This document shows, piece by piece, positions 8,018 to 55,250 of a stretch of 64,000 nucleotides of DNA. The position numbers were made by a program, and so were the translations under genes. The DNA is taken from NCBI GenBank assembly GCA_959024545.1, contig CAUFFJ010000004.1, positions 12,584 to 76,583 on the forward strand. The letters run 5' to 3'. The notes under the pieces were generated by a model, which was not told where the DNA came from, did not search any database, and saw only the letters and a list, made by a program, of their open reading frames with translations. The DNA is from an uncultured Bacteroidales bacterium (GTDB lineage: Bacteria > Bacteroidota > Bacteroidia > Bacteroidales > Muribaculaceae). Every line of letters begins with the position of its first letter. The first letter of the stretch is position 1.

Positions 8018-9433
8018 TCAGGCTGTGGCAGGCGAGGGCTCGAGAGTGAATCCGCGGTGCATCCAGCGGCGTGAACGCCAGCGGCGCATGAAGACTATGC
8101 CGCGCACGTTTTCGTCGAGCGTGAACATCCACCACATACCCAGAATGCCGAATCCCATAGGTATGCCGCATATCCAGGCCCCGACTACGGCTATCGACCA
8201 CATGAATATCAGCCCTACCCAGAATGGATAATTCACGTCGCCTGCTGCCTGAAGCGTATTGACGAACAGGATGTTGACCGGACGTCCCACTTCAAGCACC
8301 ACGTCTATCCAGAGTATGGCCACGGCCAGCGCTATTATCTCGGGATTGTCGGTGAGCGACGAGATTATCATCTCTCCGCAGAGGGCTATGGTGAGTGAGA
8401 AGGCGAGGGTGCAGCTGACGGCTACCCGGAGCAGCCAGCGCCCGAGCACGTATGCTCCCTGCCAGCGTGAAGCTCCGACCAGATGCCCTATTGTAATGGC
8501 TCCGGCATGGGATATGGATATGCAGAAAAGGTAGCCATACATTATTATGTTGACACAGTAGGTGCGGGCGGCGAGCGATTCTATGCCCAGCGAAGTGATG
8601 AAGTATGCTATCACGAGCTGTGAGCAGCTGTAGCTCATTGCCTCTCCGGCGGATGGCAGCCCGATTTTCATCAGGTTGTGAAATTCGCGTGTGGGAAAGC
8701 GGCGGAATATGTGCGTGGGGAAACGGCTTACTGTGGTGCGGAATACGATTACAAACAGTATCGTCATAGCTATTATGCGCGACACCACCGTGGAGAGTGC
8801 GGCTCCGCTGACGCCTAACTTCGGAGCTCCGAGTTCGCCGAAGATAAATGCATAGTTGCCGGCGATATTGAGGATATTGACCACCAGTATCACGAGCATC
8901 GGATATATGGCTTTGTTGTTGCTTCGCAGGGCAGCCGAGAGTGTCATGGCCAGAGCCTGGACGAAGGCTCCGGCTCCTACGATGCGCATATAGCCGGCGC
9001 CTTCCGCCAGAGCTTCTCCCTCAAGGCCCATTGCCTGTAATATCGGGGCCGCGAATAGCAGCAGCGAGAGGCTTATGACGAGGCCGAATACAAGATTGGC
9101 TGCCAGCGATACTCCTACTACGGTCTCCATACGGTCGCGCAGACGCGCTCCGAGATACTGGCTGCAGAGCACGGATGTGCCAAGATTTATTACCTCGAAT
9201 ACAAGGAAGCAGAACGAGAGCACCTGATTGGCGAGGCCGACTGCGGCGACGCTGATATCGCTGTGTCGTGAAAGCATGAATGTGTCTACCGCCCCCAGTG
9301 TCATCACCAGCAGGGTCTCTACCAGAATAGGCCCGGTGAGCTGGGCCACTTCGCGGCGAAGCGGCGACTTGCGCAGGCGGCGGAATGCATGGCTGCGTCC
9401 GGGCGATAAGGATATGGAGGGTGAAAGGTTCAT
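8018..9433 (-). CDS. MATE family efflux transporter
   Basis: 471 aa with ~12 TM segments. Contains ...VGLANQVLSFCFLVFEVINLGTSVLCSQYLGARL... A -7 box (caaagtta, 9491-9498) lies upstream. Confidence 0.7.
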   Translation of the reverse strand: MNLSPSISLSPGRSHAFRRLRKSPLRREVAQLTGPILVETLLVMTLGAVDTFMLSRHSDISVAAVGLANQVLSFCFLVFEVINLGTSVLCSQYLGARLRDRMETVVGVSLAANLVFGLVISLSLLLFAAPILQAMGLEGEALAEGAGYMRIVGAGAFVQALAMTLSAALRSNNKAIYPMLVILVVNILNIAGNYAFIFGELGAPKLGVSGAALSTVVSRIIAMTILFVIVFRTTVSRFPTHIFRRFPTREFHNLMKIGLPSAGEAMSYSCSQLVIAYFITSLGIESLAARTYCVNIIMYGYLFCISISHAGAITIGHLVGASRWQGAYVLGRWLLRVAVSCTLAFSLTIALCGEMIISSLTDNPEIIALAVAILWIDVVLEVGRPVNILFVNTLQAAGDVNYPFWVGLIFMWSIAVVGAWICGIPMGFGILGMWWMFTLDENVRGIVFMRRWRSRRWMHRGFTLEPSPATA

Positions 9434-9692
9434 GTGTCAGCAGTGGGTCAGAAAACGCTTTCCTGACAGTGCGAAAGCGGAAAGCGGCTGCAAAGTTAGC
9501 GATTTTTTCCGCCGGGGGCACACAATCGTGGGGCTGTGGTGCGTTTTTTAAGTAAATTTAAACAACGGCAGTGTAACAAGAATGCGCTGCCTACATCAAC
9601 TATATACGAAGCGAGACTCTCGCTACCGTTTATTGCCTCTGCCCGGGACGTGTCGGCGTTCCGGCTTTAACGGGAGGCAACCCGAAGGCATC

Positions 9693-10190
9693 ATGACCGA
9701 AGAGAATTTCAATCAACTCACGGGGCCGCTACGGCTCAGGATGCTCGCCTGCGCACTCACACTGCTGCATGAGCGTGAAGCGGCGGCCGACTGTGTGCAG
9801 GAGACACTGCTCCGTCTCTGGCAGTCGCGCAGCCGTCTGGCTGCCATCGACCGTCCCGAGGCTTATTGCATCGCAGCTGTGAGGAGAAATGCTCTTGATA
9901 TGCTTCGGCGGACGGCTAAATATCAGCAGGTCGATATTCTTGAGGCCGATGGGGCACTGACCGACGACACTCCAGAGCGGTCGGCCGAGATACGCGACCG
10001 GCTGCGTATGGTGACCGGTCTGCTCGGGCAGCTGCCCGAGCGCCAGAAGATGGTGGTGAGCATGAGTGCCATCGACGGCCTTGACAATGCCGAGATAGCG
10101 CAGGCCACCGGCATCAGCGACGAGAATGTGCGTGTGTTACTCTCGCGCGGACGTTCGAGACTAAAGGAACTTTATTCGCGTTTGCATTGA
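9693..10190 (+). CDS. RNA polymerase sigma-70 factor, ECF subfamily
   Basis: ORF 9582..10190; the likely start is ATG 9693 (MTEENF...). Region 2 (LLHEREAAADCVQETLLRLW) and region 4 (AEIAQATGISDENVRVLLSRGRSRLKE) are present. Confidence 0.75.
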   Translation: MTEENFNQLTGPLRLRMLACALTLLHEREAAADCVQETLLRLWQSRSRLAAIDRPEAYCIAAVRRNALDMLRRTAKYQQVDILEADGALTDDTPERSAEIRDRLRMVTGLLGQLPERQKMVVSMSAIDGLDNAEIAQATGISDENVRVLLSRGRSRLKELYSRLH

Positions 10191-10215
10191 CGCTTAAGAA
10201 GGAATTTTATTTTTT

Positions 10216-11214
10216 ATGCAAAATATATCACGAGATATCGATGACCGGCGGCTAGCGGCTCTGATCGCGAAGTGGGAGAGGGCTGAACTTTCGGCCGAAG
10301 AAGAGCTCCTGCTTGAGGAGATTGCTACGGAATATGTGCTGACACAGTCGGGCGAAAGCTGTCGGGGAGTCCGGGCATCCGCCGATGAAGGGCGGGCGCT
10401 CCATGGAGCGCCCCTACAGGGGTCGGCGTGCCTGAGCCATGATGCTGAGCTGCGCCTGATCGCTGATCTTACGCTTGCCGCCTGTGTATCGGCATCTGCA
10501 GCCGGCAGATGGAGTGAATCGGAACTGTCGGGTCTCGATGCGCGGTTTGACGATGCTATTCATAAGGCTGCTCTTACCGAAAGCATTTCGGATACATCGG
10601 CCAATGCCTTGGCAGGCAAGGCACGACCCTCTAAAGCTTTCCGCAGGAAGTGGCTTCGCTTCGGAGTAGCAGCGGCGGTGGCCTGTCTGCTTTTCGGCGG
10701 CGGCTTGCGACTGATGCAGTATGATGCGGCCGCCCCCGTAGGGGCGCACCATGGTGCGCCCGCCCAAGAATCCGGGGCGCGATTGTCCATCAATGGGGAT
10801 GCGCCCGAGAAAACCAATCCTTTATCCGGGCGCACCATGATGCGTCCCTACCTGGCATCCGCCTCCGATGAAGGACGGGCGCAACATGATGCGCCGAAGC
10901 AGCCATCTGCCGGGGGACGTGAAGAATCGCGACCATACGAACTGGCCTCCGATGAAAGACGGGCGCATCATGATGCGCCCCTACAGTCCCCCGACGTTAT
11001 GGAAGAGGACGAGCCCTCGCAGCCCGTCTGGCTTCCGGCCACGGCATCGCTGCCGGCTACCCGCGACGATGACTCGCCGTTGATCACAGCCAAAGCAATT
11101 ACTTCCACAGCTAATCATCTTGATGATGCTTTCACAAGCGGAGAGAAAAGCGTGGCCCACGTTGCCCTTCTGCTTGAAGATCTTTTCGGCGACGGCATAT
11201 CGCTTGATGAATAA
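10216..11214 (+). CDS. Anti-sigma-factor-like membrane protein whose central part is encoded by palindromic repeat copies
   Basis: 332 aa; positioned between the ECF sigma and the DUF4252 protein. One TM (RFGVAAAVACLLFGGGL). Peptide repeats ASADEGRALHGAPLQ / ASASDEGRAQHDAPKQ / LASDERRAHHDAPLQ / GAHHGAPAQ are encoded by GGGCGCNNCATGNNGCGCCC palindromes at about 10378-10990. Confidence 0.45.
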   Translation: MQNISRDIDDRRLAALIAKWERAELSAEEELLLEEIATEYVLTQSGESCRGVRASADEGRALHGAPLQGSACLSHDAELRLIADLTLAACVSASAAGRWSESELSGLDARFDDAIHKAALTESISDTSANALAGKARPSKAFRRKWLRFGVAAAVACLLFGGGLRLMQYDAAAPVGAHHGAPAQESGARLSINGDAPEKTNPLSGRTMMRPYLASASDEGRAQHDAPKQPSAGGREESRPYELASDERRAHHDAPLQSPDVMEEDEPSQPVWLPATASLPATRDDDSPLITAKAITSTANHLDDAFTSGEKSVAHVALLLEDLFGDGISLDE

Positions 11215-11250
11215 ATACTTACCTTAACAGCCTATAAAATACTTACTTAT

Positions 11251-11718
11251 ATGAAACCTATCCTTACTCTTCTTTGTGCCCTGCTGATGACGGTGGCCAC
11301 TGCTTTTGCCGACGACAACGCCCTCTTCAAGGAGCTGGCCTCGCATAACGACATCCAGTATACTTACTTCTCTCCGGCAATGCTCCAGGCATTTGGCGAC
11401 CGGCAGATACGCACTAAAAATTTCTCGATTTCCGCATCCGATCTTACAAGCGTAGAGACGGTAAAGACCATGGGCGACGGTAAGGCAAATAAGGCCGTGA
11501 TGAACCAGGTGAAAAAAATAATCAAGAATGAGAAGCTGGAGGTGCTTGCCACCAAGACAAGTCAGTTAGGAAGCTATTATACTATCTTAGGACGTCCGCA
11601 GAAGAAAGGGCGCCAGCTCAGCCAGCTGCTCTGTATCGATTTCTCCGCTGCTGAATTTCTGACCGTAACCTATCTCAGAGGCAATATTACCCTCGATGAT
11701 GCCCGGCTGCCTTTCTGA
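11251..11718 (+). CDS. DUF4252 domain protein (secreted)
   Basis: 155 aa with a signal peptide. It has the typical position after an ECF sigma/anti-sigma pair in Bacteroidales. Confidence 0.6.
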   Translation: MKPILTLLCALLMTVATAFADDNALFKELASHNDIQYTYFSPAMLQAFGDRQIRTKNFSISASDLTSVETVKTMGDGKANKAVMNQVKKIIKNEKLEVLATKTSQLGSYYTILGRPQKKGRQLSQLLCIDFSAAEFLTVTYLRGNITLDDARLPF

Positions 11719-11765
11719 AGGCAGCCGCAGGCCGATTATGGCCGGATAACGCTATTTAAGGCCGG

Positions 11766-13937
11766 TCAGTCGGCAAAGTCGACCGAAAGGCCCAGCATCA
11801 GCCGCCGCGGATTGACCGGGTAATGGGGCATCGAGAAATAGTCTTTTGAGAAAAGCCCCTGGTTGACGTGGCTCCAGAGTACATAGAATCGCACCTTGTA
11901 GAGCCGGGCCGTAATATAAGCGTTGCAGAATGCATAGTTGCCCACCTTGGTCTTGTCCTGCGTATGGAATGTCATGGTGGCCGGCTGCAGCTCCAGCCCG
12001 TAGTAGCGGGTATACCAGTCGCAGTCGATTCCTATCTGCAGGTCGAGCACCTTAAAGGCACGGAAGTGCAGAAACATATTGCTGTAGATGCTGAGCGCCG
12101 GCAGCGGTATCACTTCTTTTTTCGACGAGGTCTGATAGGTGATGGTATTATTCCAGTTCCAGATGCCGAACTTCAGCTTCTGGTCAAGCGTGGCCGAGAA
12201 TATCTGCACGCTGCCCCCATATTGGCGCGGCAGCGACTCTGAATCGAAGTATACGTAATTCTGCACGTTCTCCACTCCGGCGCGGAGCACAGTCCGCGTC
12301 CAGGGTATCGTCAGCTCGCCTCCCACGCGGAACGAACGCGTCTTGCCGAAGTCATTGTTCCAGTAGAAATGATTCGATATGTATTTCTGCAGCAGATAGG
12401 GGACGGCCGTGTTGCGGAAGAAGCCGTATGCCCTTATGCTCACCGTATCGCCCAGCATCCTGAACCGTGTCGAGATGTCGCCGTTGATGTCGATATCGCC
12501 GGCCACCGAGCCCATGAGTCCGAATTTGGCGTCGGCGTTATAGCGTATCACTGCCCCTTGCTGCTTATTGATGCGACCTCCCACCCAGAGCAGGTGCGAA
12601 TTAGCTTTCGGGTCGATCCACGTCTCGGGCAGCGGCGTTATCTCGTGCTCGCTCTCGTCAGGGATGTAAAGCTCCGGATTCACCTGGTCATAATGCCGGT
12701 ATTCGTATGTGGCGTATGCTGCCAGCCCGAAGCGGGCCCATTTCCTGAAACCCTCTATCATCGATATGCCGATGCTGTTCGAAAGAGTCCAGTACCGCGT
12801 ATGATCCTCTGTCCGGTCGGCATTGAAGTATGCGTTAGGCCAGAACTCCCGTCCCTGCTCGCCGTCTCGATTCTTGAACTCATGGTGGCCTGCCCGATAG
12901 TCGAGCGAATAGATTATCTTGGTTACCGGTATGTATTTCTTACGTGTAAGCGTATCATTGACCTGCTCCTCCTCCCAGTAGCCTATCTTATAAGCATGGT
13001 TCATATAAAACTCCATGCCGTTTACCCGGTTCTGCGCCCGCGTCAGACGCGTGGGTATGCTTTTGGCCTCAATCTTGTCGACACCTCCCTGAAGCACACC
13101 CGGGTCCATGATGTAAAGGTCGTCGGTGATTCCGCCGTTGGCCTTGATCACAGTATTGAAATGATTCAGGAACGTCTGCGCTTCATATCTGTCGCCTAAG
13201 TAATAGAAGCTCAGTCCGAAATTCAGATTTTTTGCCGCCTGATTCTCATAGCACCCCTTCGAATGCAGATAGTCGATGAACGCCCCTATGCCTATCCGAC
13301 GGTTCACATTGCCTGCGAAGTCGGCCTTAAGCCGGTTCTGCGCATTCTCCTTATTGCCTCCGAAGTTATAGCTCAGTATTGTCGTGGGCACATATACGTT
13401 GTAGAACTTTGTCTTCTCAAATGAAGGTATCCACGGCGCTATGGCATCGTTGAAAAAGAATTTCGAATAATACGGCCTCTCGAAAAAGAGCATATTTATC
13501 CCCTCTCCCCCCAGATTACCCTGCGAGGCGTATGCGTCCGAGATCATCGAGGGGATGGTCTGCCGCTGATAGTTATAGGTAAGTGTATCGATGGTCGAGG
13601 GGAAATGCATGCCCAGCGGCAGGTCGAGCGTCCATGCCGAGCCCTTGCGCGTCTCCGATTCAGGGAGCGACTTAGGCGCCAACTGACGCAAACCACCTGT
13701 TGGAGCGCCCACGGGCTCCTGCGCCGCGGCCGTAGCCGTCACGGCACATATCAGTAGCAGCGCACCATGGTGCACCCGAAAATTGCAGCAATTGCTCGTA
13801 GGGGCGCGATCATCCATTTTTTGGTGCGCCCGCACAGACGGATACCCCGGACTCGGCAGCGACGCTATTATCCGCGACCATGCGCGGATGCTGCGATGGA
13901 GGATACCCCTCAAATGATATTTAAATGCGTCAAACAC
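11766..13937 (-). CDS. Outer-membrane beta-barrel (putative porin-like) protein
   Basis: ~690-723 aa, aromatic/Gly-rich beta-strand pattern. The track's start at 13937 is GTG and lies only 5 nt from a -7 box (caaagtta, 13942-13949). The real start is probably downstream near 13777 (VHHGALLLICAVTATAAAQEP is a signal peptide) and overlaps a repeat copy. Confidence 0.5.
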   Translation of the reverse strand: MFDAFKYHLRGILHRSIRAWSRIIASLPSPGYPSVRAHQKMDDRAPTSNCCNFRVHHGALLLICAVTATAAAQEPVGAPTGGLRQLAPKSLPESETRKGSAWTLDLPLGMHFPSTIDTLTYNYQRQTIPSMISDAYASQGNLGGEGINMLFFERPYYSKFFFNDAIAPWIPSFEKTKFYNVYVPTTILSYNFGGNKENAQNRLKADFAGNVNRRIGIGAFIDYLHSKGCYENQAAKNLNFGLSFYYLGDRYEAQTFLNHFNTVIKANGGITDDLYIMDPGVLQGGVDKIEAKSIPTRLTRAQNRVNGMEFYMNHAYKIGYWEEEQVNDTLTRKKYIPVTKIIYSLDYRAGHHEFKNRDGEQGREFWPNAYFNADRTEDHTRYWTLSNSIGISMIEGFRKWARFGLAAYATYEYRHYDQVNPELYIPDESEHEITPLPETWIDPKANSHLLWVGGRINKQQGAVIRYNADAKFGLMGSVAGDIDINGDISTRFRMLGDTVSIRAYGFFRNTAVPYLLQKYISNHFYWNNDFGKTRSFRVGGELTIPWTRTVLRAGVENVQNYVYFDSESLPRQYGGSVQIFSATLDQKLKFGIWNWNNTITYQTSSKKEVIPLPALSIYSNMFLHFRAFKVLDLQIGIDCDWYTRYYGLELQPATMTFHTQDKTKVGNYAFCNAYITARLYKVRFYVLWSHVNQGLFSKDYFSMPHYPVNPRRLMLGLSVDFAD

Positions 13938-14305
13938 GCTGCAAAGTTACAAAAAAAACGGCATCGCCGCAACCCGGCGCCCAAACAGCGCCGGCCCTCC
14001 TTCCGTAGGGGCGCACCATGGTGCGCCCGCACGCTCCTGCCAGAAGCTCCGGATGCTCCTTTATCTGGCCTTAATCCGCATTAAATCGCGTTACTATCCA
14101 TACCTTGATGTGTTTTCGGGCGCACCATGGTGCGCCTCTACTGATGAGTGGCGAAGCGCAGGATAAGGTCGGCCGCGCGGCTTACCGTACCGGGCCGATG
14201 GTACGGGTTATCTAGCCTACGAACTGAGTATCCGTCTCTTGCCGGCACGGTTTGGGGCGCACCCCATAAATGGATGATCGCGCCTCCTTCGGCCGCACCA
14301 TGGTG
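13757..14305. repeat. Cluster of at least 6 copies of a GC-rich palindromic repeat (core GGGCGCACCATGGTGCGCCC, often flanked GTAGG...CCTAC), including an inverted pair of a variant copy
   Basis: Copies at ~13762-13782, 13798-13835 (variant ggggcgcgatcatccattttttggtgcgccc), 14006-14031, 14112-14131, 14254-14285 (inverted variant ggggcgcaccccataaatggatgatcgcgcc), 14283-14303. Confidence 0.8.
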
Positions 14306-15355
14306 CGCCCCTACTTGGAGCAGTCGCCGCAGTCCGGTCTCGATCTCGGCCTGACCGGCGCCGCAGTCGATCACACTCAGGCCACGCGCACGCCCTGCCT
14401 GACGGTTGCCCACATTCAGCGTCGGCACTCCCAGCGACGGCGCCTCTATCAGTCCGCTCGAACTGTTGCCGGCTACTCCAAGGCTATGCGCCACCGCCGA
14501 GTGATATCGCCGCGCACCCAGCGAGGCCACCGCCCGGGCCCTTTCAGGCCGCGCCGCACACCATTCCTCTATCAGCCGCCGCACAGTCAGGCCGCCGCTG
14601 TCGGAATTGGGAAGCGTGAAGAGCACCTTTACGTCATCGGGCAGCGCCGACTCAAGGGCATCGAGAAAGGCCTGTGTCTGGCTCGCTTCCTCACCCGGCT
14701 CCATCGTCGCCGGATGATACGTAGCCACTATATAGCGCTCTCCGAGCGCGAAACCGATGTCGTTTTCTAACTGCTCAAGCGGCATCGGGCTGAAGCGCGC
14801 AAGCTCATCAGCTGCCGGCGAGCCTATGTAGTGCACCGCCGAGGGGTCTTTGCCCATCGAGATGACGCGCTGCCGATATTCCTCGGTCGAGGTGAGATGC
14901 AGCGAAGCCAGTTGAGTGATGGCATGGCGTATCGAATCGTCGTAAGCGCCTAAGGTAGTCTCCCCACCGTGCAGATGGACTATAGGTATGCCGAATATCA
15001 GTGCCGCCGATGCCGCCGTCAGCATCTCGTAGCGGTCGCCCAGTATCACCACGGCGTCTGGGCGCAGACGTGCCAGCGCATCGGCCATGCCGTCTGCCTC
15101 GCGTCCCATTGCCCTGACGGTCGAGGCCGGCGAGCCATCATCATCTTCAGAGAGCATCTCCACACGCGCGTCTATGCGGAAGCCGTCGGCTTCTATCTCA
15201 CGCCATGTAGAGCCGTAAAGAGGGGAGAGGTGCATATTGGTCGCTATCACCTGCAGCGTAGCCTTCTCTTTTATAAGGCGCATGATAGGCGCCATGATGC
15301 CATAGTCGGCGCGGCTGCCCGTGATGAAGCATATCTTAGGCGTATGCATATCCAT
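14138..15355 (-). CDS. neuC: UDP-N-acetylglucosamine 2-epimerase (hydrolysing), NeuC-like
   Basis: 405 aa; MHTPKICFITGSRADYGIMAPI... ...HLHGGE... The C-terminal ~50 codons run into the repeat cluster. Confidence 0.75.
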   Translation of the reverse strand: MDMHTPKICFITGSRADYGIMAPIMRLIKEKATLQVIATNMHLSPLYGSTWREIEADGFRIDARVEMLSEDDDGSPASTVRAMGREADGMADALARLRPDAVVILGDRYEMLTAASAALIFGIPIVHLHGGETTLGAYDDSIRHAITQLASLHLTSTEEYRQRVISMGKDPSAVHYIGSPAADELARFSPMPLEQLENDIGFALGERYIVATYHPATMEPGEEASQTQAFLDALESALPDDVKVLFTLPNSDSGGLTVRRLIEEWCAARPERARAVASLGARRYHSAVAHSLGVAGNSSSGLIEAPSLGVPTLNVGNRQAGRARGLSVIDCGAGQAEIETGLRRLLQVGAHHGAAEGGAIIHLWGAPQTVPARDGYSVRRLDNPYHRPGTVSRAADLILRFATHQ

Positions 15356-55186: not shown

Positions 55187-55250
55187 GCTGCAGGGTCGCA
55201 CCATGGTGCGACCGGCACTGGCAGCGGGCGCTTCATGAAGCGCCCCTACG
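55187..55250. repeat. Two more copies of the palindromic repeat family (gggtcgcaccatggtgcgaccg; gggcgcttcatgaagcgcccctacgg)
   Basis: Same core palindrome as at 10.4-11.0 kb and 13.8-14.3 kb, intergenic between the RM insert and the C10 peptidase gene. Confidence 0.75.

Follow-up and report, generated by a model that had tools for sequence, protein, structure and literature searches.

We analysed a 64,000-nt stretch of a contig from an uncultured Bacteroidales bacterium of the Muribaculaceae (GenBank assembly GCA_959024545.1, contig CAUFFJ010000004.1, positions 12,584 to 76,583; hereafter the window). An open reading frame (ORF) at 10216..11214 of this window contains a series of short palindromic DNA repeats that do not interrupt its frame. 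We consider it likely that the ORF is a genuine gene hosting in-frame GTAG-tagged repetitive extragenic palindromic (REP) elements, which probably form a neutral spacer in the encoded protein. The evidence comes from the repeats themselves, from seven strain alleles of the gene and from repeat-free relatives of the protein.

REP copies inside and outside the ORF

The 20-nt palindrome core (GGGCGCACCATGGTGCGCCC / GGGCGCNCCATGRTGCGCCC), with up to three mismatches allowed, was found at 11 sites in the window, whereas shuffled sequences give an expectation of 0.02. Five of the 11 sites lie within the ORF, at 10394, 10742, 10828, 10877 and 10961, which confirms the five in-frame palindromes that an earlier note on this DNA had described in the 332-codon ORF. 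However, that count missed a sixth copy, a long-loop variant of ~33 nt at 10774-10806 (SGARLSINGDAPE) that was recovered by a relaxed hairpin search (GGCGC, 2-26 nt, GCGCC). In total, the ORF carries six clear REPs and a possible decayed seventh at 10912-10938; the similarity of this candidate over its first half is weak when taken alone, being reached by 4 of 500 shuffles. The gene and its repeats are arranged as follows.

10216..11214, plus strand: gene for a 332-aa single-pass membrane protein (332 codons), host of the REPs; putative anti-sigma factor by position
10354..10422, plus strand: site-1 insertion (aa 47-69, ~23 codons), holding REP copy 1 and its shared 5' extension
10394..10417, minus strand: REP copy 1, core at 10394-10413 with a CTAC tail (GTAG head on the minus strand); encodes RALHGAPLQ
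10738..10761, plus strand: REP copy 2, GTAG head at 10738-10741 and a perfect core; encodes PVGAHHGAP (PVGAHHGAPAQ)
10774..10806, plus strand: long-loop REP (GGGGCGCGATTGTCCATCAATGGGGATGCGCCC); encodes GARLSINGDAP
10828..10851, minus strand: REP copy 3, core with a CTAC tail, in a different reading frame; encodes GRTMMRPY
10862..10896, minus strand: REP copy 4 with the shared 5' extension CCTCCGATGAAGGAC, tail decayed; encodes ASDEGRAQHDAP, including RAQHDAP
10912..10938, minus strand: possible decayed REP (GGGGGACGTGAAGAATCGCGACCATAC), tentative; counterpart of copy 3 in the second 84-nt unit
10946..10984, minus strand: REP copy 5 with the shared 5' extension and a CTAC tail; encodes ASDERRAHHDAPLQ, including RAHHDAPLQ
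10987..11214, plus strand: conserved C-terminal domain of 75 codons (aa 258-332), 3' of every repeat

Copies 1, 4 and 5 are read in the frame that gives GAHHGAP-like peptides and copy 3 is read in another. The resulting 12-aa peptide repeats are DEGRALHGAPLQ (aa 57-68, before the membrane helix), DEGRAQHDAPKQ (aa 218-229) and DERRAHHDAPLQ (aa 246-257); SASDEGRAQHDAPK is an example of a peptide at a junction between REP and unique sequence. The DEGRA..AP.Q peptide repeat of the earlier note therefore holds for copies 1, 4 and 5, on both sides of the helix, but not for copy 2, which has the opposite orientation, or for copy 3, which is in the other frame. Altogether ~240-320 of the 996 coding nucleotides are REP-derived, corresponding to a quarter to a third of the codons, and the array in the linker that follows the membrane helix encodes ~67-85 aa.

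The copies in the ORF are predicted to form RNA hairpins with stabilities of -11 to -18 kcal/mol (-17.9 for copy 1, -17.1 for copy 2, -17.1 for the long-loop copy and -14.7, z = -4.2, for copy 5). A terminator scan of the ORF found no terminator and no terminator-like T tract on the sense strand, and a search of Rfam at E <= 1 over 9400-14500 gave no match. An additional 14-22 nt on the 5' side is common to copies 1, 4 and 5. Moreover, the segments 10819-10902 and 10903-10986 form an 84-nt (28-codon) tandem duplication in which 60 of the 84 positions are identical; the two units align with a score of 30, whereas no shuffle scored above 6. Tandem Repeats Finder detected no array; the 84-nt units are too diverged for it and were revealed instead by alignment.

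REPs of the GTAG super-family are recognised by this tetranucleotide at one end (PMC3733652), and the movement of such REP/REPIN elements depends on RAYT tyrosine transposases (Nunvar 2010, PMC2817692; Bertels & Rainey 2011, PMC3116915; Di Nocera 2013, PMC3733652). In the window, GTAG or its complement CTAC adjoins the copies at 10414, 10738, 10848, 10981, 13754, 13798, 14005, 14138, 14311 and 55246. Copy 4 and, in this strain, the in-ORF long-loop copy have only a decayed tag; at the long-loop copy, the tag is present in two alleles from related strains (P0004 and P0005). Judged by its sequence, the palindrome is a GTAG-tagged REP element, since the hairpin, the tag, the multiple copies and the mixed orientation are all found. 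That the repeats are a DNA family and not a protein motif follows from their presence in non-coding DNA, from the two orientations in which they are found and from the use of two reading frames within the gene.

The core also occurs outside the ORF at four sites between 13758 and 14310 and at two sites at 55194-55245, and long-loop copies are present at 13802-13832 and 14254-14286; the in-ORF long-loop copy resembles these two. The window thus holds 11 short and three long-loop copies in three clusters over 64 kb, and a large share of them overlaps coding sequence. Outside the ORF they are distributed as follows.

13754..14314, part 1: neighbouring cluster, three forward REPs (13754-13777; 13798-13832, long-loop; 14005-14028)
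13754..14314, part 2: neighbouring cluster, three reverse REPs (14118-14141; 14254-14286, long-loop; 14291-14314)
55194..55249: intergenic REP pair

The palindromes had been proposed to be miniature inverted-repeat transposable elements (MITEs). They share with MITEs a small size, a non-autonomous nature, a multi-copy distribution and the ability to land in genes. However, we rejected this label: the elements are hairpins of 24-36 nt, compared with 70-300 bp for MITEs, with no terminal inverted repeats around an internal region and no target-site duplications at the polymorphic sites.

The exact 24-mer GTAGGGGCGCACCATGGTGCGCCC was found in 51 metagenome contigs with GC contents of 47 to 71%. 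These loci (L059-L109) come from many environments, and a near-identical 24-nt REP seems common to phylogenetically diverse organisms. On one contig from another organism (L067, Ga0105103_10117083, 65% GC), the REP lies on both sides of a 204-aa gene (L067:118-732, minus strand) that matches the NCBIfam model REP_Tyr_transpos (NF047646, E = 4e-17), the classical "REPtron" arrangement. RAYTs are Y1 HUH transposases, and their genes typically have their own REPs on either side. This transposase-family gene itself holds a head-to-head REP doublet in frame (VTVGAHDRAPRTGVPTRAHHGAPLP), and its score falls below the curated cutoff because the doublet splits the match. A literature search for the exact palindrome, together with a search for the REP peptides in the supplements of PMC3733652, gave no match.

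Conservation of the frame among strains and relatives

Six close homologs (P0001-P0006, 84-98% identity) from ERZ/ERR metagenome runs, whose DNA was retrieved, make up with the window a set of seven alleles. All seven are open over 325-351 codons, with no frameshift or stop, and every gap in their alignment is a multiple of three (3, 9, 12, 45 or 75 nt). Between the membrane helix and the end of the repeats, the ORF frame contains no stop codon in any allele, whereas the +1 frame contains 2-3 and the +2 frame 5-8. The events of 3, 9, 45, 45 and 75 nt, with the stop-free frame, are evidence of selection on the frame.

The strongest constraint was observed downstream of the repeats. In the C-terminal 75 codons, nine codons are polymorphic among strains by synonymous changes only and one by replacement, and dN/dS against the more distant ortholog P0007 is ~0.07. 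The coding log-odds of this domain reach 0.47 per codon, compared with 0.55 for the reference genes of the window. The codon-usage check proposed in the earlier note gave a split answer: the C-terminal domain is native-like, whereas the REP segments, in the ORF frame, score -0.21 to -0.25 per codon against +0.11 to +0.47 in the rest of the gene. Such non-native codon usage is in line with DNA that was acquired recently and used to be non-coding. The region that holds REP copy 1, on the N-terminal side of the membrane helix, shows variation biased towards third codon positions. These patterns identify the ORF, at the sequence level, as a genuine gene read through the repeats, which would then be translated. 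They agree with the earlier suggestion that mobile-type DNA palindromes lie inside true coding sequence with the frame kept.

The N-terminal half (10216-10743) differs by up to ~20% among strains, with many replacements, and the C-terminal 75 codons (10987-11214) show a single one, at residue 258. This suggests either recombination between strains or a very different constraint on the two halves.

A DNA alignment of the seven alleles showed that their differences concentrate at the repeat sites. Site 1 is in three states: a short palindrome in four alleles, a long-loop form with 12 additional nucleotides in P0003 and P0006, and a long-loop form with an inverted loop in P0005, where the loop aligns with a score of 2 in the same orientation and of 10 as the reverse complement. 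At the start of the linker, the array is built of REP units of 36 or 45 nt, combined as follows.

Window and P0001: short + long
P0003: short + long + long
P0004: long + long
P0002 and P0005: long only, preceded by 33 nt of unrelated sequence
P0006: a 75-nt deletion leaves half of a short copy, followed by a long copy

REP copy 2 is accordingly present in three of the seven alleles; in the other four it is replaced by unrelated sequence (three alleles) or removed by a deletion (one allele). The long-loop unit is an in-frame copy-number polymorphism of 45 nt, with one or two units among strains. A comparable change was observed outside the gene: the intergenic REP at 14118-14137 is short in the window and long-loop in strain L007 (+12 nt, with neighbouring bases changed; alignment A8, columns 419-450), which suggests conversion between REP types rather than simple deletion. 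In the strain carrying P0005, a DUF772 (IS4/IS5-type) transposase gene starts beside the Porin_10 gene (L001, 6892-6978), at the place where other strains have the REP cluster and an epimerase gene; this suggests an insertion-sequence insertion or a rearrangement at the REP cluster.

A repeat-masked query retrieved P0007 (308 aa), whose contig (L058) carries a sigma factor gene, the ortholog of the ORF and a DUF4252-like gene in the same order and contains no copy of the palindrome. This query and a second word-indexed homolog search, with a profile, together added only P0007, and an exhaustive HMMER search of 1.84 billion representative proteins with a family profile gave only nine matches at E <= 1e-3. 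A scan of genome contigs anchored on the sigma factor recovered only distant sigma factors of other phyla, with at most 43% identity. The ORF family is very small and uncharacterised.

The comparison with orthologs called for in the earlier note gave a clear result. All eight REP-free relatives (P0007-P0014) are without the ~23 residues at site 1 (aa 47-69) and carry no REP peptides in their linker, and therefore the repeats are lineage-specific insertions. The relatives have a common architecture of N-terminal helices, an LDADLRLIAA-like motif, a membrane helix, a linker and a C-terminal motif. Their linkers are of similar length and consist of unrelated low-complexity sequence, and the C-terminal motif is common to all of them (PV(F/W)LPA.ASLPA.R.DDS...E.SVARVALLLEDIF; in a longer form, PV(F/W)LPA.ASLPA.R.DDS...E.SVA.VAL.LED(I/L)F). 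The ORF protein, whose only hydrophobic helix reaches its Kyte-Doolittle maximum (1.83) at aa 149-167, would be laid out in the same way: a cytoplasmic N-terminal part made of helices, the one membrane helix, a linker that varies, and ~70 conserved residues forming a C-terminal domain.

An AlphaFold2 model built from an eight-sequence alignment is weak overall, with a mean predicted local distance difference test (pLDDT) score of 44. It contains the following elements.

aa 10-21 and 27-44: helices, pLDDT 80-85
aa 46-69: site 1, coil between helices 27-44 and 76-94, pLDDT 30-41
aa 76-94 and 101-127: helices, pLDDT ~70 and ~35-50
aa 140-172: membrane helix, pLDDT ~35-45
aa 173-287: coil, pLDDT 25-35
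aa 288-324: two C-terminal helices

This weak model places every REP copy in one or other of its two coil regions of low confidence (pLDDT 25-41).

Proposed history of the repeats and alternative explanations

We propose that GTAG REPs entered the gene at two permissive places, the loop between N-terminal helices (site 1) and the linker past the membrane helix. The linker REPs would then have multiplied through in-frame tandem duplications of 84 and 45 nt, and short and long forms would have been exchanged by the 12-nt switch. The palindrome core is free of stop codons in all frames, and its G-to-A variant CATGATG places TGA in one frame, which is not the one used. Likewise, the reverse tag CTAC is stop-free in all frames and the forward tag gives TAG in only one, which copy 2 avoids (CCC GTA GGG). 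The unit lengths of 24 and 36 nt, GTAG head included, are multiples of three and would keep the frame. Purifying selection on the downstream domain would remove variants that break the frame, so that only in-frame, stop-free arrangements persist. The REP segments themselves are most likely neutral, disordered spacers carried as tolerated passengers. They appear to be tolerated insertions rather than an acquired function because they are the most strain-variable segments of the gene, with non-native codons and low predicted order.

Several points weigh against this account. The N-terminal and middle parts of the protein evolve fast, with dN/dS of ~0.44 and 40 replacement versus 26 synonymous polymorphic codons, and the constraint on the whole protein is modest. 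The shared 5' extensions and the 84-nt tandem units imply that part of the copy number reflects local duplication or conversion, not independent insertion, and thus that several copies did not arrive by transposition. In addition, nothing about frame selection can be read from the 12-nt step that separates the short and long forms: it is also seen at a REP between genes and is intrinsic to the element. The REPs of this genome may have been mobilised by a RAYT, but tblastn with an E. coli sequence and the L067 protein as queries detected no RAYT gene in the window or in the strain loci of ~60 kb. Finally, the call of disorder from the structural model is only indicative.

The earlier note had offered domestication of the palindromes as protein-coding repeats as one possibility. 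Under exaptation, the REPs would act as a linker cassette of variable length that tunes signalling, as in a contingency-type locus, or their mRNA hairpins would regulate translation or stability. The concentration of strain differences at the REP sites, with one to three units in the linker array and three states at site 1, is compatible with such a role, as are the stable hairpins (-11 to -18 kcal/mol) and the presence of the same REPs in the equivalent linker of an AraC-type membrane regulator (L081, see below). However, the same type switching takes place at an intergenic REP, in-frame REPs are also found in an unrelated epimerase and in a DUF3078 protein, and the unrelated low-complexity linkers of the relatives suggest that the region tolerates anything. 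A regulatory hairpin is further disfavoured by the lack of a terminator-like T tract on the sense strand and of an Rfam match. Domestication is not supported by the variability, codon usage and low predicted order of the repeat segments, and we regard exaptation as unlikely. A specific form of it, in which REP arrays are in-frame, copy-number-variable linker cassettes in membrane-anchored regulators (the ORF protein and the L081 regulator), appears doubtful; if it were true, REP recombination by duplication, deletion, type switching and loop inversion would turn a selfish element into a source of heritable diversity in signalling proteins.

The earlier note had also raised the possibility of a shorter gene with an ORF extended by chance through the repeats. 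Here the gene would end near the membrane helix, the REPs would be intergenic, as REPs normally are, and the C-terminal 75 codons would be separate or non-coding. The non-native codon usage of the REPs and the presence of an ATG (Met262) after the last repeat can be cited in its favour. However, all seven alleles stay open through indels of 3-75 nt while the other forward frames contain 2-8 stops, REP copy 1 already lies upstream of the helix amid third-position-biased variation, and P0007-P0014 encode the N-terminal part, helix, linker and C-terminal domain as a single protein. We reject chance extension, which is very improbable, on the grounds of the C-terminal constraint, the native-like codon usage, the open alleles and the closure of the other frames; the purifying selection on the C-terminal domain, with the closed frames, refutes this part of the earlier reading.

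Just as improbable is a decaying gene, in which REP invasion would mark relaxed selection and a pseudogene in the making. The rapid evolution seen in the N-terminal and middle regions, a REP load that is unusually high and the great rarity of the family in databases would fit this picture, but none of the seven alleles has a frameshift or stop, strong purifying selection acts on the C-terminal domain whether strains of the species or P0007 are compared, and the operon neighbours are intact in all strain loci. Least probable of all is an ancient protein repeat, with the peptide motif as the selected unit and DNA that is only seemingly palindromic: three copies do encode a near-identical 12-aa DE(G/R)RA.H.AP.Q, but the same DNA is found in intergenic positions, in both orientations and in two frames of the gene, the motif is missing from the relatives, and no other protein with a domain of this motif came up in the exhaustive search, whose profile covered the repeat columns as well.

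Genomic context and comparison with known systems

In-frame hosting of neutral REPs remains our preferred explanation, and it can be set against the context of the gene and of other REP-bearing loci. The ORF is the second gene of a cluster whose other members are the following.

9693..10190, plus strand: ECF (extracytoplasmic function) sigma factor gene, 165 aa, first in the cluster; Pfam Sigma70_r2 and Sigma70_r4_2
11251..11718, plus strand: DUF4252 gene, third in the cluster; Pfam PF14060, E = 6e-8

The placement between an ECF sigma factor and a DUF4252 gene, as previously described, was borne out: the ORF begins 25 nt past the sigma stop codon on the same strand, and 36 nt separate its end from the DUF4252 gene. 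The start of the sigma gene is called identically by gene callers across the strain loci, and its product passes the NCBIfam equivalog model sigma_PG0214 (NF058625) with 140.4 bits against a cutoff of 130. The order sigma factor, membrane protein and DUF4252 is kept in all seven strain loci and in L058. The neighbours common to the loci of P0001-P0006 are MatE, the sigma factor, the ORF homologue, DUF4252 and Porin_10.

An anti-sigma function of the ORF protein is suggested by its gene position, its topology and an analogy with PG_0215. The gene adjoins a co-directional ECF sigma gene and its product has a single membrane-spanning helix. In Porphyromonas gingivalis, PG_0215 is called a "putative anti-sigma" in the PG_0214-PG_0215-PG_0216 cluster (PMC10101095), and the PG0214-18 cluster is co-regulated (PMC11018363). 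The two clusters are alike in that the sigma factor passes the PG0214 equivalog and that the order is sigma factor, hypothetical membrane protein and DUF4252. They differ in the repeat insertions, which are present here and none of which is reported there, and the ORF is likened to PG_0215, whose own role is putative, by position. The anti-sigma assignment of the earlier note thus stands as to the usual position, but Pfam, NCBIfam and PDB sequence searches with the ORF protein and nine relatives gave no match and no known anti-sigma domain (zf-HC2, RskA-type).

REPs also lie in or at other genes of the window. A UDP-GlcNAc 2-epimerase gene (NeuC/WecB-like; 14138..15355, minus strand) carries a long-loop and a short REP in frame (14254-14314), which encode QVGAHHGAAEGGAIIHLWGAPQ at aa 347-368. 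The alignment of this epimerase to a solved homolog (5xvs_A) ends at aa 346, just before the REP insert, and the insert is retained in the most divergent strain (L110:6177-7388). The TAG stop of the epimerase gene, on the minus strand, is the GTAG tag (14138-14141) of the REP at 14118-14137; according to the 2013 REP survey, it is common for a REP tag to supply a gene's stop codon (PMC3733652). In the Porin_10 gene (11766..13817, minus strand), the predicted ATG (13815-13817) lies within the loop of the long-loop REP at 13802-13832 and is preceded by an A-rich run, and RVHHGAL, in the signal-peptide region, is encoded by a decayed short REP (13758-13777). The start and N-terminus of this porin may come in part from REPs; alternatively, its start is mis-called.

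Similar cases were found in a metagenome assembly (ERZ1106943). A gene on a contig of 52% GC (L081:208-1977, minus strand) encodes a 589-aa regulator with tetratricopeptide repeats, a membrane helix and an AraC-type helix-turn-helix domain, with three in-frame REPs, two forward short and one reverse long-loop, located in the linker after the membrane helix, as in the ORF protein. In the same assembly, a DUF3078 protein gene (L075:316-1863, plus strand) holds one in-frame REP (SVGAHHGAPP) in its N-terminal region.

The elements resemble the GTAG REP/RAYT systems described previously in being GC-rich hairpins of 20-36 nt with a terminal GTAG, in their dispersed copies and opposite-orientation clusters, in the copy that supplies a stop codon and in the RAYT flanked by REPs in L067. 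However, the host here, in line with its gene content (Porin_10, DUF4252 and a PG0214-type sigma factor), belongs to the Bacteroidota, a phylum for which the 2013 survey lists only CGTC REPs (PMC3733652); furthermore, many copies overlap coding sequence, and no RAYT was seen in the window or strain loci.

Insertion of palindromes into genes has been described in two other settings. Rickettsia palindromic elements (RPEs) lie in frame in protein genes, including those of R. conorii (Ogata et al., as cited in PMC3733652). As presented in that survey, they are like the REPs of the ORF in being selfish palindromes, in frame in genuine genes, absent from orthologs and presumed to occupy harmless loops or linkers. 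They differ from them in length, RPE-1 being ~100-150 bp and encoding 30-50 aa in the survey's account, and in phylum, whereas the units here are short, arrayed and variable by strain. In addition, the host here is apparently not an obligate intracellular bacterium, the related contigs being shotgun metagenomes with ordinary Bacteroidota housekeeping genes. Closer in type are the GTAG and CGTC REPs reported inside ORFs of Opitutus terrae, Thauera sp. MZ1T and other bacteria (PMC3733652). There, intragenic GTAG REPs occur as singles, dimers and clusters, the clusters encode 43-82 aa, and a flexible-linker argument has been made, all of which parallels the ORF; however, the genes concerned are mainly those of DNA repair and replication, and that survey gives no strain-level evidence of in-frame copy-number change (PMC3733652).

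In-frame REP or RPE insertion is thus already described, although it is an uncommon route by which selfish DNA enters proteins, and the present case adds a Bacteroidota example, which extends in-frame GTAG-REP insertion to a gut or environmental lineage of this phylum. Two aspects are worth noting: the in-frame array could be followed from strain to strain, and an apparently large fraction of the REPs of this organism lies within genes. For annotation, attention should be paid in metagenome proteins to REP-derived peptides (GAHHGAP or GRTMVRPY, for example), which may mark spurious ORFs as well as real inserts, and gene callers should not cut such genes short at the repeats. The analysis further points to a small family, so far unannotated, of putative anti-sigma factors paired with PG0214-type ECF sigma factors. 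At the population level, it offers a view in which REP hairpins can form a quarter or more of a functional bacterial gene, while selection keeps the arrays in frame as they expand, contract and switch type.

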